From the sequence record MN342151.1: 64,000 nt of DNA; one strand, written 5' to 3'. Under the pieces are notes generated by a model. That model saw only the letters and a program-made list of their open reading frames with translations. It did not search any database and was not told the origin of the DNA. The DNA comes from Escherichia phage vB_EcoM_3HA14. The position numbers and the translations under genes are program-made. Positions 3,230-45,021 of this stretch are shown one piece after another. Every line of letters begins with the position of its first letter. Within the stretch, counting starts at the first letter, position 1.

Positions 3230-3475
3230 ATGTTAAAATTATTGATACCAGCTTTAGTAGTCCTACTGGTTGGATGTAACCCTTCTTATGAGAATAAGGA
3301 TGCTTCTTACAGACTTCCTCCAGAAATGCAAGACTGCAAGATTTATAAACTTAATGGTGATGCCATTAGCAGGGATGTTATTGTAGTTCGCTGCCCAAAT
3401 TCTCAGACGACAACTTCTTACAAGTATGGGAAGAATAGTCAGTCACACACCACAGTTTTTGATGGGGGATATTAA
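3230..3475 (+). CDS. putative lipoprotein (81 aa)
   Basis: N-terminus MLKLLIPALVVLLVGCN has a signal sequence plus lipobox (LVGC); GAGG RBS upstream. Confidence 0.5.
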   Translation: MLKLLIPALVVLLVGCNPSYENKDASYRLPPEMQDCKIYKLNGDAISRDVIVVRCPNSQTTTSYKYGKNSQSHTTVFDGGY

Positions 3476-3476
3476 T

Positions 3477-3683
3477 ATGCAGGTTCTGGTAAACTTTATC
3501 TATAAGTATGAAAACATCTTCAGCACTATGACTGTAGCTCAACGCAATCCAGTTATTCCACGAGAAGGGGAGACTGTTGAGATTAATGATTGGAACTACA
3601 GAGTTGAAGAGGTCAAGCATAAACTTAAAGATGGTTATGACCACCAAGTTGTAAATGTGTATTTAAAAGGTAAGTGGCAATGA
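3477..3683 (+). CDS. hypothetical protein (68 aa)
   Basis: ORF-track start at 3426 overlaps the lipoprotein gene; internal ATG 3477 has a GGGGGA RBS and abuts the upstream stop. Confidence 0.35.
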   Translation: MQVLVNFIYKYENIFSTMTVAQRNPVIPREGETVEINDWNYRVEEVKHKLKDGYDHQVVNVYLKGKWQ

Positions 3684-4213
3684 GTGAAAAAAGGTTATTC
3701 AAAGAGTCCTACAGTAATCTGAAGATGGGTTATCAAGGCTACTCAATACCTTGGTATGAAGATAAGAAAAAACAGTATTCAAACCCTTTTATATATCAAC
3801 CTGTAAAACTCTCTGTACTGGAGTTTTGGCATGAAACTGGAGCTACGCCATACCAATTTGACAACATGGAATATGCGCGTATTTGTAAAAGTCTTGGTGC
3901 AAGACAAGTTGATAATATCATTGAACATTTGAAGGATTTGTATAAAGATTTTGCTGGATACTTATACGAGAAACAGTTTGGGGAGTGCTTAAAATACCCA
4001 GATGGGTCACTTGTTCTGCTCTCATACATGTCTAATGGTAACATAAAAATTGCATACAAAGACCTGTGTGATAACTACTATGATTTTTATACTAGATTGA
4101 GACTACCATACCCAGATAGCTCCTTTTCCTTATCTAGCAATGCAATGACGCACTCTGGGAATATTGTTTCTGTTGAAAAATTAAAAAAGACGTGGGAGAA
4201 GAAAAATAAATGA
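3674..4213 (+). CDS. hypothetical protein (179 aa)
   Basis: Long ORF; start overlaps the previous stop. Confidence 0.45.
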   Translation: MAMSEKRLFKESYSNLKMGYQGYSIPWYEDKKKQYSNPFIYQPVKLSVLEFWHETGATPYQFDNMEYARICKSLGARQVDNIIEHLKDLYKDFAGYLYEKQFGECLKYPDGSLVLLSYMSNGNIKIAYKDLCDNYYDFYTRLRLPYPDSSFSLSSNAMTHSGNIVSVEKLKKTWEKKNK

Positions 4214-5310
4214 CAATTCTGTACAAACAAAATAAAGATGGTTCTTTCAACGTCTGGTCATGTGTTGCTGTAGGTGATAAAGTCGTCACAACTTATGGTA
4301 AAGAAAATGGCAAGATGATGTTTGAAGAGTACACAGCAGAGCCAAAGAACATCGGTAAGAAGAATGAGCGTAATGCTGAACAGCAAGCTCTTTTTGAAGT
4401 TGCTGCTAAGTACAAGAAGCAGGTTGACCGTAAAGGGTATGCTTACACAAAATCTGAAGCAGAGAATGTTGAAAAGGTTGGTGTACAGCTTGCTCAGGAT
4501 GCTTCCAAGATAAGTCACAAGAAGTATCTGGTATTTCCTGCCGATGCTCAACCTAAACTTGATGGGGTTCGTTGCAGGATTTCAAGAGATGCTGACTCAG
4601 AAAGTTTTACGGCATATTCTCGTGAGAACACGGTATACAACATTCCTGTAGAGTTGATTCCTGATGTTCTTCTTATGCTGAAACTGCACAAAGATGTTGA
4701 AGATTTCGATGGTGAGATTTATGCTCATGGTTGGGACTTGGAAGATATTGTATCTATGATTAAGAATGCTGACAATCCAGACCGTCACCTTCTTAAATTC
4801 TACTGGTATGATATCTGTGACAAGACTAAATCTTGGCCTGAGCGTCGTGAAGTTATTGATAATTCACCAATCGTTGAACTCGGTGATGCTTGCAGGGTTG
4901 TACCTGTTCAGACAATCCGTGTTAACTCTTGGGAAGAATTTGATAATGCTCATGACAACTGGGTTAAACTCAAGTTTGAAGGGGCAATGTATCGGTCAAT
5001 CTCACCAGATTCGTTCTATGAGTGTGGTCATCGCTCTTACTTCCTGATTAAGCACAAGAAGATGCACACACAGGAATTTAAAGTAACGGGTGTAAAGACT
5101 GATAAACGTGGTCATGGTAAGTTCGTTGTAGAGACTCTTCCTAACGTCTTTGTAGATGTTTCATGGAAAACTACACACGAGAAGAAAAAGTATCTTGCTG
5201 AACATCCTGAAGAGTTTATCGGGAAGCCTTTAACGGTTCAGTTCCAGAAGATGACTCGTAAGGGTTCTTTACAGTTCCCTGTTGGGCTAGTAATTCGAGA
5301 CTATGAATAG
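4210..5310 (+). CDS. ATP-dependent DNA ligase
   Basis: Adenylation motif I KxDG present as PKLDGVRC; size (366 aa) fits compact phage ligases. Confidence 0.8.
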   Translation: MTILYKQNKDGSFNVWSCVAVGDKVVTTYGKENGKMMFEEYTAEPKNIGKKNERNAEQQALFEVAAKYKKQVDRKGYAYTKSEAENVEKVGVQLAQDASKISHKKYLVFPADAQPKLDGVRCRISRDADSESFTAYSRENTVYNIPVELIPDVLLMLKLHKDVEDFDGEIYAHGWDLEDIVSMIKNADNPDRHLLKFYWYDICDKTKSWPERREVIDNSPIVELGDACRVVPVQTIRVNSWEEFDNAHDNWVKLKFEGAMYRSISPDSFYECGHRSYFLIKHKKMHTQEFKVTGVKTDKRGHGKFVVETLPNVFVDVSWKTTHEKKKYLAEHPEEFIGKPLTVQFQKMTRKGSLQFPVGLVIRDYE

Positions 5311-5318
5311 AGGTTAGT

Positions 5319-5468
5319 ATGTTTAGCACAATTATCCTGTTTGTTTTTGTTGTTTTATCATTATCTTACTTCATAAGTAAACTTTTAAGCATAACATACA
5401 AAGCAGCCTTAGCCCTTACTCTGTTGTCATTTGCAGTAAATGCAGCAGTTAGAATGTATTTAGTATAA
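5319..5468 (+). CDS. small hydrophobic protein (49 aa)
   Basis: Not in ORF track (under 60 aa). ATG 5319; product MFSTIILFVFVVLSLSYFISKLL... is largely hydrophobic. Confidence 0.3.
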   Translation: MFSTIILFVFVVLSLSYFISKLLSITYKAALALTLLSFAVNAAVRMYLV

Positions 5469-5473
5469 AATTG

Positions 5474-5501
5474 TTGACATGAGTAACCTGACGGGTATAC
5501 T
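5474..5501 (+). promoter_or_regulatory. sigma70-like promoter inside a palindrome
   Basis: TTGACA (5474-5479), 16-nt spacer, TATACT (5496-5501). Flanked by inverted repeat CTGACGGG...CCCGTCAG with inner CTATATAG palindromes; GGAGG RBS before ATG 5546. Confidence 0.5.
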
Positions 5502-5545
5502 ACCTATATAGAAAATTATATAGGAACCCGTCAGAAACCTCGGAG

Positions 5546-5932
5546 GTGTTTATGAAAAAGTTACTTGTTGGTGTCATTGCTATTGGTATGAGTTTTAGTG
5601 CAGCAGCTATGAAGATGCCTGAAGCAAACTTTAATGGTGTCGCTTTAGAATCTTGTAAGATTGTACAGAAAATCGCTTCAAATGCTGGAGAGTTGACTAA
5701 ACCGTTGTCTGCTCAGACTGTTCAAGAAATGACTGATAAGATGGTTGACTACAACTACCATTTTATGGGAGATTACTATGACAGATTAGCAGATGAGATG
5801 GTTACTCAGAACGTTGACCTTCTTGATAGCAAAGGTATTGAGACTGTAGAAGATGTGAAAGACAATTTTATGCGTGAGTCTTTCAAAGGTGTTCAATACT
5901 TTATTGAAAATCGTCACTGCATGGGTTTATAA
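5546..5932 (+). CDS. secreted or periplasmic protein (128 aa)
   Basis: N-terminal signal-peptide-like segment MFMKKLLVGVIAIGMSFSAAA; own promoter and strong RBS. Confidence 0.5.
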   Translation: MFMKKLLVGVIAIGMSFSAAAMKMPEANFNGVALESCKIVQKIASNAGELTKPLSAQTVQEMTDKMVDYNYHFMGDYYDRLADEMVTQNVDLLDSKGIETVEDVKDNFMRESFKGVQYFIENRHCMGL

Positions 5933-5934
5933 TC

Positions 5935-6138
5935 ATGAAGAAGAACATCTGTAGAGCAGACTACGGTGAAGTAGTCGATGATGACGGAGTAGTTATTTAC
6001 AGAGTTTGGGCAAGTGATTATTCAACCGTTGTAGAGTCTTTAGATAACTACATCAATGGGACTCGTGAAAACGTCAGAGCAACTAATCTTGATTCGTTAA
6101 TAGACACTTCTCGAAAACGGAGAAAGAAAGATGAATGA
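5935..6138 (+). CDS. hypothetical protein (67 aa)
   Basis: ORF in early block. Confidence 0.35.
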   Translation: MKKNICRADYGEVVDDDGVVIYRVWASDYSTVVESLDNYINGTRENVRATNLDSLIDTSRKRRKKDE

Positions 6139-6430
6139 AGTCTTTGACCCATATGCACCTCAAGATTCTTGGGAGGCTGATAGAGAGGCTGAAATGGAGA
6201 ATTATGTCTGTCCAATGGATATAGAAGAGATGAAAGACTTTGTATCTTTCAGATTCTCTAAAGAGATTGAGAAGCTAAAACTTTCTCAGGCTCAAGTAGC
6301 AACTGTTTGTGAAATCTCACAGAGTCGTGTATCAAATATCATTAACGACCCTCAAAAGATTTCTTTAGAGTACATGCTTAATGCTTGTACAAAACTTGGT
6401 GTAAATTTTAACTTAAGGCTGGCAGATTAA
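6131..6430 (+). CDS. putative HTH DNA-binding protein (99 aa)
   Basis: C-terminal segment LSQAQVATVCEISQSRVSNIIN resembles an XRE-type helix-turn-helix. Confidence 0.45.
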   Translation: MNEVFDPYAPQDSWEADREAEMENYVCPMDIEEMKDFVSFRFSKEIEKLKLSQAQVATVCEISQSRVSNIINDPQKISLEYMLNACTKLGVNFNLRLAD

Positions 6431-6431
6431 T

Positions 6432-6791
6432 ATGAAACGTGAAAATGCAATCTTTAACGATAACTTTGCAATTGGCTTCTATGGTAAACCAACTCCAGCA
6501 GAGAAGCTTTATGGTAATGCAATTCTGGAGACCTTGAAAGAGGTTTACACAACTGGTGGTATGAAGCATACTGAAGCAAACCGTGTAAGAGGTTATATGG
6601 CAATTGGCTCTGCAATCTCTAACATCAAACTTGAAACTACAAGTGCTAAAAAGGTACGAGACCACTTCATCAAAGAGTTGTCAGAGAACCTAGATGGTGT
6701 TGAAGTCAAGGCTGTCTGGTTAGATGTTGATGGTCACAACTATACAACTTTTGTGTTTAAAAATGAGGATATCAAATGTCTCTTCCCTTAA
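6432..6791 (+). CDS. hypothetical protein (119 aa)
   Basis: ORF in early block. Confidence 0.4.
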   Translation: MKRENAIFNDNFAIGFYGKPTPAEKLYGNAILETLKEVYTTGGMKHTEANRVRGYMAIGSAISNIKLETTSAKKVRDHFIKELSENLDGVEVKAVWLDVDGHNYTTFVFKNEDIKCLFP

Positions 6792-24372: not shown

Positions 24373-24972
24373 TTATTTTACCCCTTTGGAGTCTACATCT
24401 AGATGGATAGTATATTCTGGTGGCTCCTGTCCTTCCTCGTAAACCAATTCACCATCCACAATGACACGTTCAATAATACTTCCACGTTCATCTTTTAATA
24501 CTGAATTTTTTACAAGGGTTACAACAAGAGGTGCAGAATTTTCAAAATCTGTGTTGAGATAAGTATAATCATTCGGGATAGCCCCTGTATCAAGTACTGA
24601 AGCACCTGTCATGTCAGCTAGATAATCTCTTGTAGTACTCATCTCTAATCTTTGTTTTAGCTCAAGCATAATACTGTGAGCACCTTTACCATTTACAGTA
24701 ATCAGTACAGGAATCTGGAAAGCAATTCTGTAACAAACTACATCATCTTCCACGAACTTATCAAGGACCCAACCATAAGGTGTGGTAGCATCTTGACAGT
24801 ATACTGTAATAAAAGGTTGGTCTGGTTTCAGACCTTTATCATTGGAATTATCTGAAGGGTAAGCCCTAATAACGTTTGGTCTGTTATTCTTGTCTCTCGC
24901 TAAACGGTGACCAATAACATCAACCAAAACTCGGACAATACCTTTCTCAAGTTCTGCTGTTTCTAACTGCAT
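24373..24972 (-). CDS. putative tail completion protein (199 aa)
   Basis: Synteny between head and sheath genes. Confidence 0.4.
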   Translation of the reverse strand: MQLETAELEKGIVRVLVDVIGHRLARDKNNRPNVIRAYPSDNSNDKGLKPDQPFITVYCQDATTPYGWVLDKFVEDDVVCYRIAFQIPVLITVNGKGAHSIMLELKQRLEMSTTRDYLADMTGASVLDTGAIPNDYTYLNTDFENSAPLVVTLVKNSVLKDERGSIIERVIVDGELVYEEGQEPPEYTIHLDVDSKGVK

Positions 24973-25827: not shown

Positions 25828-26276
25828 TATTCATCTCGCTCGATAATAAATACACCATTGACACGTTCACAGTAATCTCTACCGTAGTATCTAACAGCAT
25901 CGCCATATTCAGTATATTTCTTGACAGAGCAAGGATTTTGACGACGCATGTCAATATCACACTGGTTAATACCACCCGCATAAGGGAGGCCACTAACAGA
26001 GCTTTTAACTAGGTCGTCATAGACAGCTTTCAGAGATTTGAATCTGGAAGAGTTTCGTAAATAAACACCACCAACTTTCTCATCTCCCATCTTGGCTACT
26101 TGAAAGAGTAAATATTTAAGAGCTTTGATGGCTGCTTTCTTTTCATCCTTTCCAGATTCTTGGTAGAACCACTCTAGCACCGATTGGTCAATGAGGATTT
26201 CATTGTTGTCAGTATCGGTGCAGAGGATTCGAACTCTATCAAGAGGGTTATTAGCGGGGTCGCCTGTATAACACAT
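25827..26276 (-). CDS. putative head completion protein (149 aa)
   Basis: Synteny; directly downstream of capsid gene. Confidence 0.4.
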   Translation of the reverse strand: MCYTGDPANNPLDRVRILCTDTDNNEILIDQSVLEWFYQESGKDEKKAAIKALKYLLFQVAKMGDEKVGGVYLRNSSRFKSLKAVYDDLVKSSVSGLPYAGGINQCDIDMRRQNPCSVKKYTEYGDAVRYYGRDYCERVNGVFIIERDE

Positions 26277-26298
26277 TTATAACCCTCCTTTCAAGTTA

Positions 26299-27402
26299 TT
26301 ACTCAGCGTCTGAACGAACGTCAACAAGCAGTTGAGGACGTGTGCAGTATGGCAGCATGTAAGAGTGGGCTTCGAAGTCAATACCTTCGTCACGGTCTTT
26401 CTCATATTCGAACACATACAGTTCCTGACCCAGAGTGTTTGCATACCCCATCTTAGGACATGGAGCGTAAGCAACTTCGAAGATGTTGTTAGCTTCACCC
26501 AACATTGCTACGTTAGGGAATGCGTGACCTACACCAATATTAGTGTCAGATACACCATCAATGCTAACCAGAGTATGAGTCTTACCACGCTTGTCTTTGA
26601 ACTTACCGTTGTACTGTACGAATACAACACCACCGTAGTAGAAGCGGTTCATGTGAGCCTGAACACCATCAGTACCACCAGTTCTCAGAGAACCAGTAAT
26701 CTGTTGCCAAGCCAGCGGAGTCTGCTGTGCAAGGTATGCGTCACGAATCTTAGGATGCTTGATAAGCTTGCTGAAGAAAGTTCTGTCAACAACGATGTGA
26801 ATTTCTTCACCGTTGATTACAGTACCTGTCTTAGCTTCATCTTCCATGTGCATACGCAGGTCTTCAATGTGCGCATCGATATCAGAGTTCGGGTTGTCCA
26901 AGTCGAAGTAGATAGTCTTCTTAGTTACATCGAACTGCTTGTACAGGTCTGCGTACAGAACACCGTTAGCGTCGATAACTTTACCCTTCAGGGCTTGCAT
27001 AAACAAGAACTCACGAGTAATATCAAACTTGGTACGAATCTTCATCAGCTTCTTAGCACGTACAACTGCTTCAGTAGTCAGTTCATTTGCAGTGCCTGGC
27101 TGACGAACACCCTGAATCTCATCAGGAGTGATGCTCTCAACTTCCTTGAAGTACATCATCGGGAAGCTAATCTGACGAACACGCTCAGGAGCGCTAGTCT
27201 CAGCTTTACGGCTGGTACGGTCTACCGCATCCAGTAAGCTGATATCCCAATCAGTCAAGTCCATCAGGAAAGTAGTCTGTGTTTGTGGAGCAGAACGGAA
27301 CAGTCCCAGACCAGAGATATATCCGTAAGTATTTGGAATAGACTGGACTTCACCAGTTAAGTCAGCAAGGAAAAATCTGCTTTTTTCAGAATTAGTCAAC
27401 AT
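26299..27402 (-). CDS. major capsid protein (367 aa)
   Basis: Position after protease/scaffold and decoration-like gene; the segment is visibly more GC-rich than its neighbours, consistent with a highly expressed gene. Confidence 0.65.
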   Translation of the reverse strand: MLTNSEKSRFFLADLTGEVQSIPNTYGYISGLGLFRSAPQTQTTFLMDLTDWDISLLDAVDRTSRKAETSAPERVRQISFPMMYFKEVESITPDEIQGVRQPGTANELTTEAVVRAKKLMKIRTKFDITREFLFMQALKGKVIDANGVLYADLYKQFDVTKKTIYFDLDNPNSDIDAHIEDLRMHMEDEAKTGTVINGEEIHIVVDRTFFSKLIKHPKIRDAYLAQQTPLAWQQITGSLRTGGTDGVQAHMNRFYYGGVVFVQYNGKFKDKRGKTHTLVSIDGVSDTNIGVGHAFPNVAMLGEANNIFEVAYAPCPKMGYANTLGQELYVFEYEKDRDEGIDFEAHSYMLPYCTRPQLLVDVRSDAE

Positions 27403-33541: not shown

Positions 33542-33617
33542 TGGAGTATCGGAAGGGACTCGAACCCTCATAAACCTGTTTTGCAGACAGGCACATAACC
33601 ATTTCTGACACCGACAC
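33542..33617 (-). tRNA. tRNA-Cys (GCA)
   Basis: Manual fold: acceptor GTGTCGG/CCGATAC, anticodon arm CCTGT-CTGCAAA-ACAGG, T-arm GAGGG-TTCGAGT-CCCTT, CCA encoded. Confidence 0.75.
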
Positions 33618-33623
33618 ATAATT

Positions 33624-33716
33624 TGGAGGAAGATACCAGACTTGAACTGGTACGCCGATTTCTCGGTTACTGGCAGTTTAGCAAACTGCTCCCTTACCTT
33701 TTAGGGTTAATCTTCC
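33624..33716 (-). tRNA. tRNA-Ser (GCT), long variable arm
   Basis: 93 nt; acceptor GGAAGAT/ATCTTCC perfect; anticodon loop TTGCTAA; long variable arm; T-loop TTCAAGT. Confidence 0.75.
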
Positions 33717-33717
33717 A

Positions 33718-34452
33718 TTATTTGTTCAGAGCTTCTTTCATCTCTGGAGTTGCGATAGTATCAATCACACCAGTTTTACATGAATCATCAAACCAGCTTG
33801 GTAGAACATTCGCAAGGAAACCATTAATATTTGTTTTCAGATATTCTGCAATCAGTGCTGCTTCATCTGCAATCATCTGAGTTACTTCGTTAGCATATGC
33901 AGTAATCTTTGCAATACCCTCATTAATCGCTGTAACGGCCTGTGTAGCGAGTTCAGAGATTGTATCTAGTCCTTGGTCGATTGCATCTTGCAAATCGCTT
34001 AGAACGCCATTTACAGCGTCTATGGAGGTATTAATCAAATCCATCGCTTTATTACCGTACTCGGTAGCTACGCCCATGATACCGCTAAACGGTGTACATC
34101 CAACCTGTTCACCTGCTGCTCCCATAACGTTAGAGTAACCTTTAGCTACTTGCATACGTTGTGAAAACTCATCTACAGACTTTTGTCCATACTCAGTAAG
34201 TGTACTTGTCGTTGAAGTTGTACTTCCAAGGCTTGTTGTGAAGCTTCCTAATAAGGCTGTTGTCAGTCCAGCAGCAACTAAAATCTGTTGTGTAGCTGGG
34301 TCTGTTACAGAACTAATTGAGTTAACTAATGATTGAGAGGCAGCTATAGTACCACCAAGAACTGCTGCACCAGTAATAAGAGGGTTTGAAAAACCATTAC
34401 CAGTTTTAAGGAGATTAAAAATCTCTTTACTTTGTTCTGTCATCTCTTTCAT
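33718..34452 (-). CDS. hypothetical Ala/Thr/Ser-rich protein (244 aa) within tRNA cluster
   Basis: ORF-track start (GTG at 34515) would run through a tRNA-Phe; ATG at 34452 has a GGTG RBS and avoids the tRNA. Confidence 0.5.
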   Translation of the reverse strand: MKEMTEQSKEIFNLLKTGNGFSNPLITGAAVLGGTIAASQSLVNSISSVTDPATQQILVAAGLTTALLGSFTTSLGSTTSTTSTLTEYGQKSVDEFSQRMQVAKGYSNVMGAAGEQVGCTPFSGIMGVATEYGNKAMDLINTSIDAVNGVLSDLQDAIDQGLDTISELATQAVTAINEGIAKITAYANEVTQMIADEAALIAEYLKTNINGFLANVLPSWFDDSCKTGVIDTIATPEMKEALNK

Positions 34453-34468
34453 TATGCACCTATAAAGT

Positions 34469-34545
34469 TGGTAGCCCATCGGGATTTGAACCCTGTTCTC
34501 ATGTTTTTCAGACACGCGCTTTAACCATATAAGCTAATTGAGCTA
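34469..34545 (-). tRNA. tRNA-Phe (GAA), atypical acceptor/D spacing
   Basis: Anticodon arm CGTGT-CTGAAAA-ACATG; D-arm GCTT-ATATGGTTA-AAGC; T-loop TTCAAAT; acceptor pairs only with a 1-2 nt offset and T-stem is weak. Confidence 0.55.
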
Positions 34546-34551
34546 TTAAAT

Positions 34552-34628
34552 TGGGGTGACCTACGGGAATCGAACCCGTATAGACCATGTTCACAGCATG
34601 GGTCATTATCCATTTATGATAAGGCCAC
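34552..34628 (-). tRNA. tRNA-His (GTG)
   Basis: Anticodon arm CCATG-CTGTGAA-CATGG; D-arm TCAT/ATGA; acceptor GTGGCCT/AGGTCAC; CCA encoded. Confidence 0.75.
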
Positions 34629-34659
34629 ATTTAAGGACTCTCGTAAGAATCCTTAGAAG

Positions 34660-34735
34660 TGGCAGCAGTATAAGGATTTGAACCTTAATCTTTCAGCTTC
34701 AGAGGCTGGAGCATTGCCAGTTATGCTATACTGCT
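34660..34735 (-). tRNA. tRNA-Gln (CTG)
   Basis: 76 nt; anticodon loop CTCTGAA; D-arm GCAT/ATGC; acceptor AGCAGTA/TACTGCT perfect. Confidence 0.7.
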
Positions 34736-34741
34736 AATATT

Positions 34742-34820
34742 TGGTACTCCATATCGGATTCGAACCGATACATAACACAGATTTTAAATCTGGCCTCTCT
34801 GCCAATTGGAGTAATGGAGC
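34742..34820 (-). tRNA. tRNA with Leu anticodon (TAA) but short variable arm
   Basis: Anticodon loop TTTAAAA; D-loop AATTGGCAGAG (Leu-like); variable region about 7 nt; discriminator A; T-arm ATCGG-TTCGAAT-CCGAT. Confidence 0.6.
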
Positions 34821-34822
34821 AT

Positions 34823-34898
34823 TGGCGGGGGATGATGGAATTGAACCATCTTCTTCGATTTCAAAGACCGAGGTTTTAACCTTGTAAACTAATCCCCT
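34823..34898 (-). tRNA. tRNA-Gln (TTG)
   Basis: Anticodon arm TCGGT-CTTTGAA-ATCGA; D-arm GTTT/AAAC; position 1:72 mismatched. Confidence 0.65.
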
Positions 34899-35124
34899 AA
34901 CGAACTCTTGAAAGAATATATGCGTTATTGCAAGTATCCTTATTTTCAGGTAGTGATGTTTCGAAGATAACTTGCTTAAGTTCTAATCCAGCAAAGTTAT
35001 AAACAACCTTTCTAACTTCTAACGGGTCACATTGCCAACCAACCGCTATAAAGAAAGTATCTCCAAATCTACCTGTTTCAATCTTGTGGTCATCTTTATG
35101 TTTTTCAACTATGAGTTTATACAT
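34897..35124 (-). CDS. hypothetical protein (75 aa) between tRNA genes
   Basis: ORF fills the gap between two tRNAs. Confidence 0.35.
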   Translation of the reverse strand: MYKLIVEKHKDDHKIETGRFGDTFFIAVGWQCDPLEVRKVVYNFAGLELKQVIFETSLPENKDTCNNAYILSRVR

Positions 35125-35142
35125 AATGTTACCTATTAAATT

Positions 35143-35219
35143 TGGTGCAGAATAGAGGATTCGAACCCCTAACTAACAACTTCGTAGGTTGCTGCTCTGT
35201 CCATTTGAACTAATTCTGC
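35143..35219 (-). tRNA. tRNA-Arg (ACG)
   Basis: Acceptor GCAGAAT/ATTCTGC perfect; anticodon arm GCAAC-CTACGAA-GTTGT. Confidence 0.75.
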
Positions 35220-35381
35220 AATATCCTTTTGAGATTCCTGTCTAGCTCTCTTCTTATCTCTTCTGAGAAAGCGTTTACGATGGTCTGTACGCCATTTGTA
35301 ATAATCTTCTTCACCATCATGCGCTGCACAGCAGCCACAACTTGCAATTTCAACTTTACCATGTCTACCATAAGGCTTCAT
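35169..35381 (-). CDS. hypothetical Cys-rich basic protein (70 aa)
   Basis: ORF whose 3' 51 nt overlap tRNA-Arg; CxC plus basic KRxRR-like segment. May be real or chance. Confidence 0.3.
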   Translation of the reverse strand: MKPYGRHGKVEIASCGCCAAHDGEEDYYKWRTDHRKRFLRRDKKRARQESQKDIAELVQMDRAATYEVVS

Positions 35382-35397
35382 AGGAATCTCCTAAAAT

Positions 35398-35475
35398 TGG
35401 TGTTCCAAGACGGATTCGAACCGTCACTAATACAAGGTTTGAGCTTGCATCCTCTGCCAATTGGGATACTGGAAC
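35398..35475 (-). tRNA. tRNA with Leu anticodon (CAA) but short variable arm
   Basis: Anticodon arm GCAAG-CTCAAAC-CTTGT; D-loop AATTGGCAGAG; variable region about 6 nt; discriminator A. Confidence 0.6.
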
Positions 35476-35476
35476 T

Positions 35477-35551
35477 TGGTACTCGCTGAAGGACTTGAAC
35501 CTTCTTCACCAACTTGTAAGGATGGGGCTTTACCATATAAACTAAGCGAGC
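35477..35551 (-). tRNA. tRNA-Val (TAC)
   Basis: Anticodon loop CTTACAA; T-arm GAAGG-TTCAAGT-CCTTC; separated by 1 nt from the neighbouring tRNA. Confidence 0.7.
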
Positions 35552-35646
35552 TTTGAAGAGGTCTGAAGCTGTGCCGCTAACTCAACTCCGTGGAATTTGT
35601 TACGGTCTTCAGTTGACTCAAGCGGTCTTTCACTTGACCTCAAAAT

Positions 35647-35723
35647 TGGTGCTGCTCACAGGACTCGAACCTGCATCTCCATCCTTACAAGGGATGTGCA
35701 ATAGCCAATTATACGAAAGCAGC
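35647..35723 (-). tRNA. tRNA-Thr (TGT)
   Basis: Anticodon arm CATCC-CTTGTAA-GGATG perfect; T-loop TTCGAGT. Confidence 0.75.
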
Positions 35724-35729
35724 ATTATT

Positions 35730-35804
35730 TGGAGCATCCAGAGGGAATCGAACCCTCAACCTCAGTTTGGAAGACTGTAATTTTCCCATTTAAACTATGG
35801 ATGC
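35730..35804 (-). tRNA. tRNA-Gly (TCC)
   Basis: Acceptor GCATCCA/TGGATGC perfect; anticodon loop CTTCCAA. Confidence 0.75.
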
Positions 35805-35810
35805 ACTAAT

Positions 35811-35886
35811 TGGTGGAGAAGCAGGGAATTGAACCCTGTACTTAAGTTTGCAAAACTTATGTTTTAACCATGTAAACTACATCCCC
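35811..35886 (-). tRNA. tRNA-Ala (TGC)
   Basis: Anticodon arm TAAGT-TTTGCAA-ACTTA perfect; D-arm GTTT/AAAC; G3:U70 wobble (Ala identity element) present. Confidence 0.8.
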
Positions 35887-35892
35887 ATTGTT

Positions 35893-35968
35893 TGGTACAG
35901 GTGGAGGGAATTGAACCCATCGTCTTACTGATTAAGAGTCAGCCGCATAACCATTTTGCTACACCTGC
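35893..35968 (-). tRNA. tRNA-Lys (CTT)
   Basis: Anticodon arm GCTGA-CTCTTAA-TCAGT; T-stem only 3 bp (GGG/CCC). Confidence 0.6.
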
Positions 35969-35975
35969 ATTAATT

Positions 35976-36052
35976 TGGTACACCTAGAGAGATTCGAACT
36001 CACACTGAGCAGATTCTAAGTCTGCTGCCTCTTCCAATTGGGCTATAGGTGC
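35976..36052 (-). tRNA. tRNA with Leu anticodon (TAG) but short variable arm
   Basis: 77 nt; anticodon arm GCAGA-CTTAGAA-TCTGC perfect; D-loop AATTGGAAGAG; 5-nt variable loop; discriminator A. Confidence 0.65.
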
Positions 36053-36305
36053 ATTAAATCTTTGTAGAGAACTGCTAAGACGCCAAAGCAACAATGGTAT
36101 CAAATGCCTTAACAATTCTCTAAAAAGACCTATTGGCCTCTGCATAGTCTTGCTTAATCCGGTGACTAGAACCTTTGGAGAGCTTGATACTATCTCTTCT
36201 CCGTGACACCTACTAGGTGCTTTACCAGTGCCGTGTACGCCAATACACGAAGAGGAAACCTGAAACACTTGCTCGAACAAATAGTCTCAGCTTTAAATCT
36301 TATTA

Positions 36306-36395
36306 GGCGGTAGATAAAGGAGTCGAACCCTCACCGTATCTCTACAATGGCAACTGTTTTCAAGACAGTTTGGCTTCCATTAGCCGCTACCTACC
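36306..36395 (-). tRNA. tRNA-Ser (TGA), long variable arm
   Basis: About 90 nt; anticodon arm ACTGT-CTTGAAA-ACAGT; long variable arm; 3' CC encoded but not the terminal A. Confidence 0.7.
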
Positions 36396-36408
36396 CCTAA
36401 TAAGACTT

Positions 36409-36491
36409 TGGCATGGGACGGAGGATTCGAACCCCTTTGAGTAAGTTTTGGAGGCTTACGCACATGCCTTAGTGTCTTAACATCGTCCCAT
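36409..36491 (-). tRNA. atypical tRNA-like gene, possibly tRNA-Trp (CCA)
   Basis: Perfect 7-bp acceptor ATGGGAC/GTCCCAT and T-arm. Anticodon stem GTAAG/CTTAC encloses a 9-nt loop CCTCCAAAA (CCA anticodon if the closing pair is unpaired); D region about 8 nt longer than canonical. Confidence 0.5.
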
Positions 36492-36656
36492 ACTATATTT
36501 CGAAGCTTACCCTGTTATCTCAACACTGTCAAGCTTCTTCTCAGATTATTTACATGTTCTGGAAAACATGAGATACAGACCACCTCCTTATGAGATTGAC
36601 TCTTTCAAGTCAATGCGGAGACCCATAAAGGTCGTCATAGTAATCTGCTAACTAAT

Positions 36657-36724
36657 TGGCAGTCAAGGTAGGAGTCGAACCTACTTACTATTAAAGGGAG
36701 CTACCCTTCAGCAACTATCCGACT
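36657..36724 (-). tRNA. tRNA-like element (truncated or non-canonical)
   Basis: Canonical T-arm GTAGG-TTCGACT-CCTAC and CCA end, but only about 68 nt to the best acceptor match; no convincing anticodon arm. Confidence 0.35.
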
Positions 36725-36785
36725 TTCGTTTATCTCTTAACGCGTATCCAAGATAACTTACTCGTGTTGTCTTGACCATTAAAAT

Positions 36786-36862
36786 TGGCACACCCTACAG
36801 GATTCGAACCTGTAACTGACGGTTTAGAAGACCGTTGCTCTATCCGTTTGAACTAAGGGTGC
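36786..36862 (-). tRNA. tRNA-Arg (TCT)
   Basis: Anticodon arm ACGGT-CTTCTAA-ACCGT perfect; T-arm ACAGG-TTCGAAT-CCTGT. Confidence 0.75.
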
Positions 36863-37066
36863 ATTATCTTTAAAGGCTCTCTTAGAAAACCCTTAAAGAT
36901 GCCCACTTTATTAATCATACCGTGGGCTAGTACGCCAAATTCTTTAACAGGGAGTTGGAATACCCTGCTGGTGTTTAGCCTATTAAGCTACTGCCAGAAA
37001 AACATTATCGTTTGCATTTATTTTTAAGTTTTTAAAATAGACGCTACGCTAACGAAAACTAAGGTT

Positions 37067-37095
37067 ATCTTAAAGTGGTCACATCTAAATGTCAA
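37067..37095 (-). promoter_or_regulatory. possible internal sigma70-like promoter in tRNA cluster spacer
   Basis: On - strand: TTGACA (37090-37095), 17-nt spacer, TAAGAT (37067-37072). Confidence 0.3.
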
Positions 37096-37109
37096 CAACT
37101 TTATGAAAT

Positions 37110-37187
37110 TGGTTGTAGGTGAGGGTATCGAACCCTCTTCTAACGGTTATCAGCCGTTTGCATTACCATTTATGCTAACCCACAATT
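37110..37187 (-). tRNA. tRNA-Ile (GAT)
   Basis: Anticodon arm AACGG-CTGATAA-CCGTT perfect; D-arm GCAT/ATGC. Confidence 0.75.
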
Positions 37188-37189
37188 GG

Positions 37190-37266
37190 AGGTTCAGGTG
37201 GGAATCGAACCCACATTCATAGGGCTTATGAAACCCTTGCATTACCTTATCTGCGACTGAACCATT
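37190..37266 (-). tRNA. tRNA-Met (CAT), elongator-like
   Basis: Acceptor GGTTCAG/CTGAACC perfect; anticodon arm AGGGT-TTCATAA-GCCCT; 1:72 paired, so not initiator-like. Confidence 0.7.
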
Positions 37267-37344
37267 ATAAGTTGCCCCTTTGTAGAGAACTGATTGAGTG
37301 GGTGTTTCCAGCCGCGCATGTGTTCTTCAGTTAAGGGGCGAATT

Positions 37345-37421
37345 TGGTAGAAGTGGAGGGATTCGAACCCGTCGCCTGTCAGATTAAAAGTCTGCCGCAT
37401 CACCATTCTGCTACACTTCCA
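37345..37421 (-). tRNA. tRNA-Lys (TTT)
   Basis: Anticodon region GCAGA-CTTTTAA-TCTGA; weak T-stem like the CTT isoacceptor. Confidence 0.65.
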
Positions 37422-37606
37422 TTAAATCATCTTTGCAGTAACCTACGCAAACCTTGCTAAAGGGTTTGTAGAGTCATCTCTTATAAGCTAATCTAGAATC
37501 ATGCTCAAGAGACTCTTCGGCACTCATGGGACGACTGGTTAGCTCCATAAGTCACTGCAAAGAGGATTACCAGACCGTATTTATCTTAAGTGCTTCCATT
37601 ACACCA

Positions 37607-37643
37607 ACACGCCGTAACGTGTGAAGGAATCGAACCTTCGCCT
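37607..37643 (-). ncRNA. orphan T-arm-like hairpin with adjacent stem-loop (tRNA-like module without acceptor or anticodon)
   Basis: Sense strand GAAGG-TTCGATT-CCTTC followed by ACACG-TTACGG-CGTGT; no pairing acceptor found within 100 nt. Confidence 0.3.
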
Positions 37644-37844
37644 TTTCTTTACCAGAGAAATAGATTGTTTATTGTTTGCTGTAAACGGTCTTCTGTAAAA
37701 TTGTTGGAACCAGACCAAGTTTTAAATTTTTCAAATTAAATTGGCTTGAAATATTAAAATTGCTTGCTGTATTTGGTCTTCTGCTCCTTTAAAGAATACT
37801 CGTAAGAACTCTTTAAGGGAGGGGCTAAAAAGCCCTCTCAAATT

Positions 37845-37921
37845 TGGCGGTTACGAAGGGATTCGAACCCTCATCATCCTCCGTGACAGGGAGGTATTTT
37901 GACCAGTTAAACTACATAACC
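37845..37921 (-). tRNA. tRNA-Asp (GTC)
   Basis: Anticodon arm CCTCC-CTGTCAC-GGAGG perfect; T-arm GAGGG-TTCGAAT-CCCTT. Confidence 0.75.
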
Positions 37922-37927
37922 TTTATT

Positions 37928-38015
37928 TGGTGCGCCGTGAAGGAGTCGAACCTCCCGAGTCATAATGACAAGTGATTTACAGTCACCACCGCTTCCATCT
38001 ACGGGATAACGACGC
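37928..38015 (-). tRNA. tRNA-Tyr (GTA), long variable arm
   Basis: 88 nt; anticodon arm GGTGA-CTGTAAA-TCACT; variable-arm hairpin TGTCA..TGACT. Confidence 0.7.
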
Positions 38016-38083
38016 ATTTTATTCTATTCAGGCTAAGGACTTGCACCTTACAAATCGGTGAGCAATCGCTTCTCTCCCAAATC

Positions 38084-38161
38084 TTGGCGGTTAGTCAGGG
38101 ATTCGAACCCTGTACCATTCGGTTAACAGCCGACCGCACATGCCTTATGTGCTTCCTAACC
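38084..38161 (-). tRNA. tRNA-Asn (GTT)
   Basis: Anticodon loop CTGTTAA; D-arm GCAC/GTGC; T-arm CAGGG-TTCGAAT-CCCTG. Confidence 0.7.
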
Positions 38162-38245
38162 ATGTTAGTATTACCAGACCGTATCTTTTCATTTTTTGCC
38201 TATAAAAAATTTTAAGTGTTTGCTGTAAACGGCCTTCTGTAAATT

Positions 38246-38322
38246 TGGAGGCGGGTGTAGGAGTCGAACCTACCGATAACATGCTAATGAGACATGTGAG
38301 ACACCCTTTCTCTATACCCGCA
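38246..38322 (-). tRNA. tRNA with CAT anticodon (Met or Ile2), 1:72 mismatch
   Basis: Anticodon arm CATGT-CTCATTA-GCATG; first acceptor pair unpaired (T:C). Confidence 0.6.
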
Positions 38323-38409
38323 ATTCTTAATGACCAGACCAAATCTTTTTTGGATTTCTATGCGCGAAATTGAAAAGTTTGTTTGCTGTAATTGGTCTTC
38401 TGTCAAAAC

Positions 38410-38487
38410 TGGCATTCCCGAAGGGACTTGAACCCTCAAACCACACCTTGAAAGGGTGTTGACTTTACCTAATTTGTCTACGGGAAT
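38410..38487 (-). tRNA. tRNA-Glu (TTC)
   Basis: Acceptor ATTCCCG/CGGGAAT perfect; anticodon arm ACACC-CTTTCAA-GGTGT perfect. Confidence 0.75.
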
Positions 38488-38493
38488 ATAATT

Positions 38494-38573
38494 TGGTCTC
38501 CGTTGAAGGATTTGAACCTTCGACCCCTTGCTCCCAAAGCAAGTGCTGCTAAACCAAACTGAGCTAAACGGAG
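38494..38573 (-). tRNA. tRNA-Pro (TGG)
   Basis: Acceptor CTCCGTT/AACGGAG perfect; anticodon arm CTTGC-TTTGGGA-GCAAG perfect. Confidence 0.75.
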
Positions 38574-38610
38574 ATAATCTTTTTAACAACCTATGTAACA
38601 ACTATAACAC

Positions 38611-38640
38611 TATTTTTTAGTGTCTGTCAAGAGGTTTTTT
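38611..38640 (-). promoter_or_regulatory. candidate sigma70-like promoter for the tRNA cluster
   Basis: On - strand: TTGACA (38635-38640), 18-nt spacer, TATAGT (38611-38616), about 40 nt upstream of tRNA-Pro. Confidence 0.4.
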
Positions 38641-38738
38641 AAAATAATTTGATTTATTTCAGAAAACTTCTTTTTCGTTTCTATGTAGAACATATTAAAG
38701 GGTATTAAACACTTTGTCAATACCCTTTTTAAAACTTT

Positions 38739-40154
38739 TTACCAATCGTAGCGTTCAACCATTACTGCTTTGAGCATTACGCTGATAGGGTCAAACTTCT
38801 CACCACCAAGCAAAGCTTTTAAAGTGGCTGGAGAGAAACCAGATACCATTGCTACACCGTTATCCTTTACAGACACTTCGCAAGTACCGTTACGGTTTGC
38901 TAAGTACCAGAATACCAGTTGTGGCATCTCATATCCAGCTTTCTTGTACTTTTCTTGAATTGCTTCAAAGTTAGTACGACCATCTGCTCCATCAACCTGA
39001 TTAAACTGCATATCAGAGAAGATGATAAGCTTACTAGGCATCTCTTTCTGAGTCAAGTTGTTTTTAACACCAATCTCAAGGATTCTTGCAAAAGCAGCTT
39101 GTAGGTCAGTTGAACCATACTCTACATGACTCTTCACTTGACGTAAGCGAGTCTGTAAATCACCACTCAATGTGATGAAGTGAGGTCTGCTAGAGTAAAC
39201 CATCAATTCATCTTTAAAGCAACCTGTATTACGTTCTGAAACGTACAGGGCTAAAGATACACCAATGTCTAGCGCTGTAACAGAACCATGTCGCTCCCAA
39301 GTCATAGATGAAGATACATCTGCCATGCACAGAATGTTCTCACCCTCTTTCATCCAGTTTGGTAAAGCTTTCCACTGCTCATTTGCAACGGTTGCATTAC
39401 CATAACCGACTGACTTTGTAATGTCATAAGGGTAGACTGCACCAGCATTAATCTTTGTCTCACCTTTAGTCAGTGCTGCAATGTATGCTGCATAACGCTC
39501 ACCATCTTTACGACTGAAGAGTTTTTGATAACGTGCAGCAGCCAGTGAAGGAAGCTTGCTGTAATCAATCTCTCCGAACTCATTTGCTGAAATCTTTTGT
39601 TCAACAGTATCAGACAGTGCTGACAGAAGAACTCGATACTGCTTCTCTGAAAGATTTGCAAACTTACAGAAACGACGAACAAAACGCATGTGTCGTGATT
39701 TTACTCGTGGTAACCATTTTGCTGCCAGAGCCGATGTTGCAGGGTCTAACAGTGCAGCTTCTAAATGCTTGAAAGCATCTGTTTCGTAACGTGTACCAAC
39801 AAAGATTTTAAAGTCGTCATAACGACCTAAATCAGAAATCTTGTCCATGATACGTAACACTTGGAACTCATCAAGAATCCCGTCAGAGATTGCTTTAGTA
39901 AGAGTATAACGGAACGCTTTACGCTCACCCATACCTTCTCGTGCATCTCGCATATGTAACAGGATTCGAACTGCTACATCAATATCTTCTCGCATTGCCT
40001 TGTAAAACAAGTTTGGAAGAACTTCTACATTTGTTCTGCTTGAACCAGCAGCTTTGTAGAAATCTACCAGTGCAGACATTGAAGAGGTGTGGTTAACAGC
40101 ACCGTTTTCAGTTAAACCTGCATGTAAATGCGAGTGCTTAAATAATTCGCTCAT
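38739..40154 (-). CDS. vWA-domain protein (471 aa), possibly TROVE/Ro60-like
   Basis: C-terminal half has vWA hallmarks: hydrophobic strand then DVSSSM (MIDAS DxSxS) and LIIFSDMQFN; N-terminal about 270 aa helical. Directly upstream of and co-oriented with the tRNA cluster. Confidence 0.55.
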   Translation of the reverse strand: MSELFKHSHLHAGLTENGAVNHTSSMSALVDFYKAAGSSRTNVEVLPNLFYKAMREDIDVAVRILLHMRDAREGMGERKAFRYTLTKAISDGILDEFQVLRIMDKISDLGRYDDFKIFVGTRYETDAFKHLEAALLDPATSALAAKWLPRVKSRHMRFVRRFCKFANLSEKQYRVLLSALSDTVEQKISANEFGEIDYSKLPSLAAARYQKLFSRKDGERYAAYIAALTKGETKINAGAVYPYDITKSVGYGNATVANEQWKALPNWMKEGENILCMADVSSSMTWERHGSVTALDIGVSLALYVSERNTGCFKDELMVYSSRPHFITLSGDLQTRLRQVKSHVEYGSTDLQAAFARILEIGVKNNLTQKEMPSKLIIFSDMQFNQVDGADGRTNFEAIQEKYKKAGYEMPQLVFWYLANRNGTCEVSVKDNGVAMVSGFSPATLKALLGGEKFDPISVMLKAVMVERYDW

Positions 40155-40230: not shown

Positions 40231-40599
40231 TTATTTTTTCAGAGTTGCTACAGCAGAGAACGTTGGTTTGTTCTCCTGTGCTCCCTGATTCCCATTATCT
40301 GTAGTCTTTTTGTCTACAGCGATGGCTTTCATCTCACCTGCTGAGTGAGTCATGATAACTTTACCAGCTTCCATCATTGATTTGACTTGGATATCTTTTT
40401 GAGTCAAACCAAACTCAGCAAGCTTTACAGGGTCTCTTGTAACAATGGCCTCAAACAGTTTTGCAGCATACTCTGCTGAGTTATCAATAGTCAACTGTGC
40501 CTTGACCAGTGAACTCTTGTTACGTGAGCCTTTGGGTCTACCTGATGGGTTACCAGATTGACCTTTCTTGAATTGGCCTTTGTTTGTTCGTTTCGTCAT
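40231..40599 (-). CDS. basic DNA-binding-like protein with GNPxGRPKG motif (122 aa)
   Basis: N-terminus KKGQSGNPSGRPKGSRNK; GAGGTG RBS upstream. Confidence 0.45.
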   Translation of the reverse strand: MTKRTNKGQFKKGQSGNPSGRPKGSRNKSSLVKAQLTIDNSAEYAAKLFEAIVTRDPVKLAEFGLTQKDIQVKSMMEAGKVIMTHSAGEMKAIAVDKKTTDNGNQGAQENKPTFSAVATLKK

Positions 40600-44684: not shown

Positions 44685-45021
44685 GCTCCACATCGTTGTT
44701 TATAAGAATTTTGCAGATATACAAGAAGCCCTGTCAACAAGGCTGGACAAATGTCAGCAAAGACTATTTCTGATGTTTGATATGCTTGACTATAAACAAC
44801 CTGATAAGCTTGTGTATAAAGATGGTACAGTAATCTTTAAAAGTGAAGAGTCAGTGACCATCTTTGTTAAGCATGATATGCCAGCTAAAAATATAGGGAT
44901 GCTTGAGTTCTACATCTACCAATCCACAGGTATGCGTGGTGAGAGCATCAAAATAGATTCTATTGAGGTCTTTGAAAAACCGAAGACACCACTTAAAAAG
45001 TATTTAGTGAGGAAGTTATAG
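44677..45021 (+). CDS. hypothetical protein (114 aa)
   Basis: Start moved to internal ATG that overlaps the previous stop. Confidence 0.4.
   Translation: MLKLHIVVYKNFADIQEALSTRLDKCQQRLFLMFDMLDYKQPDKLVYKDGTVIFKSEESVTIFVKHDMPAKNIGMLEFYIYQSTGMRGESIKIDSIEVFEKPKTPLKKYLVRKL

Follow-up and report, generated by a model that had tools for sequence, protein, structure and literature searches.

The tRNA gene array of Escherichia phage vB_EcoM_3HA14 (sequence record MN342151.1) poses a simple question: why do pairs of short motifs recur in its spacers? The phage belongs to the Ounavirinae and is a Felix O1-like member of the genus Mooglevirus. In the 64,000-nt stretch analyzed here (the window), segment 37400-38600 is identical (100%) to Shigella phage Sf15, and the 26 tRNA genes detected by ARAGORN span 33542-38573, every one of them on the minus strand. 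The original prediction, made from the letters alone, described four copies of each of two motifs in the spacers and proposed that they are processing signals, small-RNA genes or internal promoters. It did not notice the strand of the motifs, a tRNA-like insert in the fourth copy or the neighboring gene for a Ro60-like protein. Our analysis indicates that the motif pairs probably belong to four paralogous genes, each encoding a small, structured non-coding RNA that resembles Y RNAs, three of them short and YrlB-like and one long and YrlA-like. The RNAs have a common structure with covarying pairs, the product of the neighboring gene has a Ro60 fold in its predicted structure, the RNA signature recurs near homologs of this gene, and both the RNAs and the gene are absent from a sister genus. 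We infer that the units are Y RNA-like partners of a divergent phage Ro60, which they would bind and with which they would function.

The repeated motifs delimit four probable structured RNAs

The repetition of both motifs is real. ACCAGACCR occurs on the plus strand at 37569, 37709, 38173 and 38333 (0.42 matches expected by chance), with one further, unrelated match on the minus strand at 24818; none of 100 shuffles reached five matches. The second motif, TTGCTGTANNNGGYCTTCTG, is found at 37676, 37764, 38220 and 38383 (0.05 expected by chance). The coordinates first assigned to these motifs were correct to within a few bases, and their partial complementarity was likewise confirmed: they form a 7-bp helix, AGRCCRN/NYGGUCU, in which compensatory changes exchange CCG/CGG for CCA/UGG between paralogs. 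The strand, by contrast, had to be corrected. Since the tRNA genes are on the minus strand, the sense reading is CAGAAGRCC...UACAGCAA for the 5' half and ...GGUCUGG for the 3' half, and each motif pair therefore delimits one RNA unit.

The units, denoted U1 to U4, lie on the minus strand within the part of the array that reads tRNA-Pro, Glu, U1, Met, U2, Asn, Tyr, Asp, U3, U4, Lys (37345..38573, minus strand; ARAGORN and Rfam). U1 (38331..38405) measures 75 nt from outer stem to outer stem, starting 4 nt after the 3' end of tRNA-Glu and ending 8 nt before the 5' end of tRNA-Met. U2 (38171..38242, 72 nt) is placed 3 nt after tRNA-Met and 9 nt before tRNA-Asn. U3 (37706..37787, 82 nt) begins 57 nt after tRNA-Asp, and U4 (37567..37698, 132 nt) follows U3 after 7 nt. 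Thus, the claim that the motifs always sit just 3' of a tRNA gene in the sense orientation holds for U1 and U2, but not for U3, with its long spacer, or for U4, which follows another unit.

Structure prediction gives one common fold for all four copies, with ACAGCAA single-stranded in each. From 5' to 3', a unit consists of an outer stem, AGA, AGRCCRN, UUACAGCAA, a variable part, NYGGUCU, G and the returning strand of the outer stem. In a fuller scheme, the outer stem has 4-5 bp and ends in C, AGRCCRN is followed by UUACAGCAARCA and a variable hairpin, and NYGGUCU is followed by G and then by G plus the outer stem. The unit ends are thus closed by a stem with an internal loop (AGA/G) between the outer 4-5 bp and the inner 7 bp. 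In an alignment of 18 short units, orthologous and paralogous, from six phages, U1 among them, each of the 11 proposed pairs is 100% paired, five of them with changes on both sides; the covariation score is 0.508, compared with 0.19 for shuffled alignments (0/500) and at most 0.15 when the partners are slid. For example, the outer stem of orthologous U2 copies changes from UUAC/GUAA to UUGC/GCAA.

U4 has the same closing stem and UUACAGCAA, but carries an insert composed of a V hairpin, a T arm (GAAGGUUCGAUUCCUUC), a closed acceptor-like hairpin and a D arm (GUGUAAUGGAAGCAC). The insert is a tRNA whose anticodon end is open and whose acceptor end is closed. It (37615-37689) scores 28.8 bits against the Rfam tRNA model, for which the gathering score is 29, and this near-threshold score probably explains the 'tRNA-OTHER' and 'tRNA pseudo' features annotated on this stretch in GenBank records of some relatives. 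Long units from phages of the Ounavirinae, Faith1, Enterococcus phage ZJGS2 and Bacillus phage Chewbecca align over their full length, and RNAalifold recovers from them the closing stem together with the V, T, AS and D arms, in total 25 pairs, 16 of which show compensatory changes.

Alignment with relatives shows that the units are kept at equivalent, syntenic positions in genomes of Felixounavirus, Mooglevirus and Suspvirus. This conservation, the covariation and membership in a family that crosses host phyla (see below) support the small-RNA option of the original prediction, with the motif pairs as closing strands of four paralogous structured RNAs. Internal promoters find no such support: there is no conserved -35/-10 arrangement within or ahead of the units, and two strong sigma-70-type promoters are located upstream of the whole array. 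When sigma-70 and T5/T4-type promoters were considered on either strand, the spacing was wrong (14 nt on the plus strand) and no -10 element was conserved. Coding potential over the units was rejected as well, as indels are not multiples of three and substitutions are compensatory. 'Hypothetical protein' coding sequences (CDSs) are annotated over units in phages UAB_Phi87 (5271-5447 and 5838-6095 of locus L002) and Staphylococcus S-CoN_Ph8 (4483-4572 and 4702-4830 of locus L012); these small CDSs are probably spurious. Self-cleaving ribozymes were considered owing to the position of units just 3' of tRNAs, but neither core motifs nor Rfam matches were found for hammerhead, twister, pistol, hatchet, hepatitis delta virus-like/theta or hairpin ribozymes. 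Finally, upon inspection, the units have no similarity to enterobacterial CRISPR repeats and are not arranged in tandem, which speaks against RNA anti-CRISPRs or ToxI-like repeats.

The neighboring gene encodes a Ro60-fold protein

All four units lie 330-1170 nt downstream, and on the same strand, of a gene for a 471-aa protein (38739..40154, minus strand), which ends 165 nt upstream of the first tRNA gene. The protein matches Pfam families DUF2828 and DUF7788 and belongs to PHROG 850 ('RNA-binding protein'). Its AlphaFold model (pLDDT 89, pTM 0.89) displays a ring of HEAT repeats followed by a von Willebrand factor A (vWA) domain with a metal ion-dependent adhesion site (MIDAS) motif, the residues of which are unchanged across 40 homologs. 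In a Foldseek search with the model, the top nine PDB matches were all full-length Ro60/TROVE proteins (E-values of 4e-8 to 1e-6). Judging from the model, the protein has the Ro60 fold; among the comparisons made, only that of structures was decisive.

Homologs were detected in 704 of 50,697 phage records (~1.4%), from phages infecting hosts of many phyla. Those of mycobacteriophages (33-35% identity) are annotated as 'Ro-like RNA binding protein', and giant viruses of protists possess the Ro-like fold as well. In a Listeria phage, the gene is located near genes for RtcB or RNA ligase. The homolog of Listeria phage CKA15 (CKA15_055; 4953-6473 of locus L008) was detected by mass spectrometry in purified virions with 57% coverage (PMC12282133), and the Ro-like protein may thus be delivered along with the DNA. 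Overexpression of the LeBron homolog is moderately toxic (PMC13148394).

The units track the Ro-like gene across phages

A covariance model built from Ounavirinae units only (R1) retrieves from the window just the four units, with 79.1, 82.7 and 82.1 bits for U1, U2 and U3, respectively. Its best matches in Listeria, Campylobacter and Mycobacterium phages directly adjoin the Ro-like gene. Three units are located in the Listeria phage and two in Campylobacter phage CP30A, all of them just upstream of the gene, and in Faith1 three units lie just downstream, the middle one with a T/AS/D insert. We also scanned GenBank loci for a signature consisting of a stem of at least 6 bp, 0-3 nt, ACAGCAA and the closing strand, and obtained 48 matches against ~6 expected. 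The scan added units in phages of Staphylococcus (three), Bacillus (three, two of them between tRNA genes), Enterococcus (two), Sinorhizobium (one, directly following a tRNA) and Fusobacterium (one); being strict, it overlooks motif variants such as UUCAGCAA, found in some U2 and U3 copies. Proximity of unit and Ro-like gene on one strand, as in the window, was observed in eight other phage groups. In 80 viral contigs encoding homologs of 38-85% identity, 88 units are on the strand of the gene and 17 on the opposite strand, compared with 15-24 in shuffles, and 38 units are within 500 nt of the gene.

The reciprocal search was performed with a second model (R2), built exclusively from 28 short units of non-Ounavirinae phages that adjoin homologous genes; the groups contributing such units were phages of Listeria, Mycobacterium, Campylobacter, Staphylococcus, Bacillus and Fusobacterium, and environmental contigs. 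In the window, the four top-scoring matches are exactly U2 (42.4 bits, E-value = 5.6e-7), U3 (36.5 bits, 1.3e-5), U1 (35.2 bits, 2.5e-5) and U4 (30.4 bits, 3e-4), the E-values being rough on account of a shortened calibration. The next match has 20.9 bits, and the sub-threshold matches at 44815, 3902 and 57904 were discarded, as they do not have the full signature.

The tRNA arrays used as negative controls contain no units. The genome of an Erwinia phage of the genus Kolesnikvirus, from the same subfamily, has 27 tRNA genes at the syntenic site, but neither the Ro-like gene nor any unit, and no unit was found in the tRNA regions of T4 and a T5-like phage. Conversely, units occur beside the gene without tRNA genes close by in Faith1 and Fusobacterium phage Fnu1, and in Staphylococcus phage S-CoN_Ph8 the single tRNA gene is ~2 kb away. 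The units therefore track the Ro-like gene rather than tRNA arrays as such.

The resulting family consensus reads aaAGR-stem-yUUACAGCAA-variable-YCU-G-u; the median length is 64 nt, the stem has 6-9 bp and a genome holds one to four copies. The signature recurs near homologs of the gene in phages of Proteobacteria, Firmicutes, Actinobacteria, Campylobacterota and Fusobacteria. Across phyla, both ends of the stem (AG...CU, then G) are invariant, and so is the single-stranded YUUACAGCAA with its ACAGCAA core; at the 3' end, G is present in 65% and U in 44% of cases. A GGTTCRA T loop is found in 14 of 77 units.

Comparison with known Y RNA systems

YrlA and YrlB are encoded beside Rsr on the same strand, and one of them has a tRNA-like domain (PMC4201824). 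Compared with these bacterial systems (e.g. Salmonella rsr-yrlBA-rtcBA; RF02553), the phage locus also has several small RNAs within 2 kb of a Ro60-fold gene, and in both cases the RNAs have a closing end stem beside a short conserved element. The order of elements in U4 (V, T, closed acceptor, D) is that of YrlA, while U1-U3 are short like YrlB; a partial match to YrlA, of 21.4 bits, was obtained with the long unit B of Faith1. The RtcB ligase near the gene in the Listeria phage is a further point of similarity. However, the bacterial protein is Rsr (Ro60), whereas that of the phage is of the DUF2828/DUF7788 type; the conserved RNA element is YUUACAGCAA instead of GNCGAAN0-1G; and the phage units, unlike YrlA and YrlB, sit inside a tRNA array.

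Among phages, one of the closest described cases is that of Thermus phage phiLo, whose Ro60 binds to a pair of adjacent Yrl RNAs and to host PNPase (PMC12135203; PDB 9l5y/9kop). In contrast to the protein studied here, phiLo Ro60 is a recognizable TROVE protein, and its Yrls were picked out by a CGAA motif; in the phiLo system, the ACAGCAA motif is absent, the RNAs are not embedded in a tRNA array and none of them is tRNA-like. Metazoan Y RNAs also differ: their conserved helix (GGUCCGA/UUGAC with a bulged C) is not found in the units, and the routes of transcription and processing differ.

Small stable non-tRNA RNAs inside a phage tRNA cluster have a precedent in T4 rnaC and rnaD (species 1 and 2), which are co-processed with tRNAs and have no assigned function. 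The T4 RNAs (5110-5373 of locus L098) do not match the family described here, the best R2 score in the T4 region being 10.2 bits, and tblastn with the Ro-like protein gave no match in the 8-kb T4 tRNA-cluster region, the part of the T4 genome to which the search was confined. T4 rnaC ends in the T-arm-like sequence CCGGGUUCGAAUCCCGG.

In Listeria phage CKA15, highly transcribed unannotated non-coding regions were reported within 2 kb upstream of the Ro-like homolog, and Y RNAs were suggested there (PMC12282133). We find that 3422-3973 of locus L008 (26195-26746 of the record) is a ROOL RNA (RF03087; 90.1 bits against a gathering score of 99.1, E-value = 4e-17), which coincides with the peak transcribed region 26,236-26,727. 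This region was left unidentified in the published study, where a Y RNA was tentatively discussed (PMC12282133). The top non-coding region is thus a ROOL RNA rather than a Y-like unit, and the expression support from that study for the units is indirect.

We found no paper on the motif or on RNA partners of DUF2828 proteins, and none of relevance on Felix O1 transcriptomics. Since the pairing of RNA and protein recurs in very different phages, it seems to represent a hitherto undescribed branch of the Ro/Y-RNA system.

Alternative explanations

The units could instead be functional small RNAs that act without the Ro-like protein, either as tRNA-mimicking decoys for host nucleases that target tRNAs or as regulatory small RNAs, with the linkage reflecting a shared early 'RNA module'. 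Indeed, U4 mimics a tRNA, units are found in tRNA arrays of Ounavirinae, Bacillus and Sinorhizobium phages, and 44 of the 80 gene loci in the environmental contigs have no unit within 1.5 kb in the strict scan. We nonetheless regard this explanation as unlikely: even in the absence of nearby tRNA genes, units are concentrated within 500 nt of the gene, on the same strand, tRNA arrays that do not have the gene do not have units either, and it is the closing stem with ACAGCAA that is conserved, not the variable part that would confer target specificity. More improbable still is the possibility that the units only punctuate the tRNA precursor, as processing structures or transcript-stabilizing hairpins. 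Neither the conserved single-stranded 7-9-mer nor the tRNA-like insert is needed for such a role, for which the 3-9-nt linkers that wedge U1 and U2 between tRNAs and the apparent lack of promoters or terminators of their own could be cited; moreover, the Erwinia sister genus, T4 and the T5-like phage process large tRNA arrays without units, and units are located beside the Ro-like gene and away from tRNA genes in Faith1, Staphylococcus and Fusobacterium phages. Processing, as initially proposed for the motifs, would be secondary at most: maturation of the neighboring tRNAs probably frees the units, but arrays that do not have the Ro-like gene contain none.

Very little speaks for decayed tRNA genes or other tRNA-derived relics beyond U4, with its insert scoring 28.8 bits against the tRNA threshold of 29 and the tRNA pseudogene label it bears in several GenBank records. 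None of U1-U3 shows tRNA features; the insert of U4, which is permuted (T arm, closed acceptor hairpin, D arm), has retained compensatory changes across phyla; and the flanking stem and motif are under selection in phages whose hosts belong to different phyla, so that we consider a relic highly improbable. The least probable explanation, to which we give almost no credence, would make the units miniature mobile elements, targets of homing endonucleases or binding sites at the DNA level, such as internal promoters or operators. Such elements would be multi-copy with inverted-repeat ends, as the units are, and phage tRNA clusters often contain genes for homing endonucleases. Yet the units occupy fixed, syntenic positions in all relatives and have a single orientation, that of the Ro-like gene (strand bias of 88:17); a change of A:U to G:U wobble keeps the RNA helix but not a DNA palindrome, and there is no conserved promoter consensus.

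Several observations weigh against the Y RNA-like interpretation itself. Pfam TROVE does not match the 471-aa protein, and sequence searches with it against PDB were not significant, a profile comparison with Ro60 chains giving E-values of 0.36-1.6 for the vWA part only. On the RNA side, the canonical Ro-binding motifs GGUCCGA, GNCGAAN0-1G and CGAA are not found in the units, which have C-AGAAG-ACC at that place, and the Rfam YrlA model (RF02553, gathering score of 69 bits) gave no match to the units, searched as a whole cluster or alone, with E-values up to 10. Furthermore, in only 36 of the 80 environmental loci does the strict scan find a unit within 1.5 kb of the gene, T4-like Vibrio and Aeromonas phages examined have a doubtful unit beside the gene at best, and the covariance-model E-values carry the roughness noted above. 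A role involving PNPase, tRNA quality control or anti-defense would, in turn, be proposed by analogy only.

Possible biogenesis and function

Two sigma-70-type promoters downstream of the Ro-like gene could drive transcription of the units together with the tRNAs. One, TTGACA-17-TAATAT (38692..38720, minus strand), is a consensus match only and overlaps the hairpin that follows the gene; the other, TTGACA-18-TATAGT with TG (38601..38630, minus strand), agrees with the consensus at 11 of 12 positions, lies 28 nt upstream of tRNA-Pro and is the likely start of the tRNA and Y-like RNA transcript. No promoter is conserved before individual units and no terminators separate them; the units therefore probably belong to the tRNA precursor. 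Their release could be accomplished by host tRNA processing, with RNase P cutting at the 5' end of the tRNA that follows and RNase E or 3' exonucleases acting after the CCA of the preceding one, and the resulting 3-9-nt tails would then be trimmed back to the stem. Such a route follows the established processing of E. coli tRNA operons.

The closing stem and the single-stranded ACAGCAA are the putative binding site for the Ro-like ring protein, a module that would stand in for the canonical Y RNA element, GGUCCGA or GNCGAAG. The part that is variable or tRNA-like, on the other hand, would tether or decoy a second factor. Known Ro/Y ribonucleoproteins (RNPs) engage the exoribonuclease PNPase, the models for comparison being Rsr with Y RNA and PNPase, and the Ro60 of the Thermus phage (PMC12135203). 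The phage RNP might serve in quality control or protection of the phage tRNA pool, or might redirect or block host RNA decay in the infected cell. Frequent proximity to tRNA arrays and, in the Listeria phage, to RtcB or RNA ligase genes suggests a role in tRNA quality control or repair or in manipulation of host RNA decay.

Resemblance to Class I RNAs of Dictyostelia

Rfam holds no family for the units, and the sole non-tRNA model that repeatedly lands exactly on them, both in the window and in the Listeria phage, is RF01414 (Class I RNA), with scores of 17.6-22.8 bits that are below the threshold (gathering score of 41.5). Class I RNAs are multi-copy RNAs of 42-65 nt that start with AAG, have a 6-bp terminal stem with compensatory changes and end in CUGU; an 11-nt motif, CCUUACAGCAA in the Rfam consensus, directly follows the 5' strand and is followed by a variable region (PMC7919456). 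Feature by feature, the phage family has a comparable architecture: aaAGR at the 5' end, a terminal stem of 6-9 bp also with compensatory changes, yUUACAGCAA in place of the 11-nt motif, a variable middle part, and YCU-G-u at the 3' end. In the units, UUACAGCAA, which comprises 9 of the 11 nt of CCUUACAGCAA, follows the 5' strand after 0-2 nt. Units of the window read AGAAG...GGUCUGG at their ends, compared with aaAG...CU-G-u in the family, and those of the Listeria phage end in CUGU. The phage median of 64 nt compares with 42-65 nt for Class I RNAs, and copies per genome are many for Class I and one to four in phages.

There are also clear differences. Class I RNAs are eukaryotic, apparently transcribed by RNA polymerase III from a promoter with the Dictyostelium upstream sequence element (DUSE) and reported to be unique to Dictyostelia, while the phage has sigma-70-type promoters and a tRNA array. 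They are abundant and developmentally regulated, and are bound by Rnp1A, a protein with an RNA recognition motif (PMC7919456); no Ro-like partner is known for them. DdR-21, one of the Class I RNAs, pulled down four proteins, including DDB_G0281243, which has no known function (bioRxiv 10.1101/2020.04.05.026054). The matching architecture and the presence of the Ro-like fold in giant viruses of protists would be compatible with a relationship across kingdoms. It is conceivable, if rather doubtful, that RNAs with the stem and YUUACAGCAA and the Ro-like proteins of the DUF2828/DUF7788 type form one ancient RNP of phages, giant viruses and eukaryotes, with Class I RNAs as its eukaryotic members. 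Class I RNAs would then be Y-like RNAs of a DUF2828-type Ro paralog, for which DDB_G0281243 is one candidate partner.

Other features of the locus

The spacers of the array hold further structures, each on the minus strand. Between U4 and tRNA-Lys, a spacer of 146 nt (37421-37566) has a very stable fold (-49.5 kcal/mol, z = -5.07), and its long closing stem is kept in six Ounavirinae, with six compensatory pairs; it has no ACAGCAA and is a further candidate structured RNA. Two neighboring hairpins (z = -3.3) are located between tRNA-Asp and U3 (37788-37844). Within the 247-nt spacer upstream of tRNA-Ile, and overlapping tRNA-Ile, there is a below-threshold match to the Rfam permuted tmRNA model (36983-37170; 36.5 bits against a gathering score of 47, E-value = 9e-5), together with a weaker alpha_tmRNA match at 36929-37066. 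The array also contains an open reading frame of ~245 aa between tRNA-Phe and tRNA-Ser (33717-34468, minus strand), annotated in relatives as a hypothetical or membrane protein. The gene just upstream of the Ro-like one and on the same strand (40231-40599) encodes a 122-aa DUF5681 protein (PHROG 4114); in an Erwinia phage that does not have the Ro-like gene, a CDS of 366 nt (~121 aa) upstream of the tRNA array occupies the corresponding position.

Implications

The system would work like Ro60 and its Y RNAs, yet departs from the described families in several respects (TROVE, Rfam YrlA and the recognition motif). It would represent a second, sequence-divergent branch of the Ro60/Y-RNA system, in which a DUF2828-type Ro ring is paired with an RNA family of its own that has a different recognition motif. 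Ro60 with Y RNA is a conserved RNA-surveillance machine whose function is poorly understood outside a few model species, and the phage pair would provide a concrete, testable function for a widespread 'domain of unknown function' protein that is often encoded beside tRNA arrays or RNA-repair genes. It also accounts for spacers mis-annotated as tiny open reading frames or tRNA pseudogenes, and predicts stable RNAs in phages used for therapy and typing (Felix O1 group). If the link to Dictyostelium is true, it would offer a clue to the mechanism of an RNA class that has long been an orphan. For the phages themselves, the locus would offer a compact model of how a virus manipulates tRNA quality control or host RNA decay.

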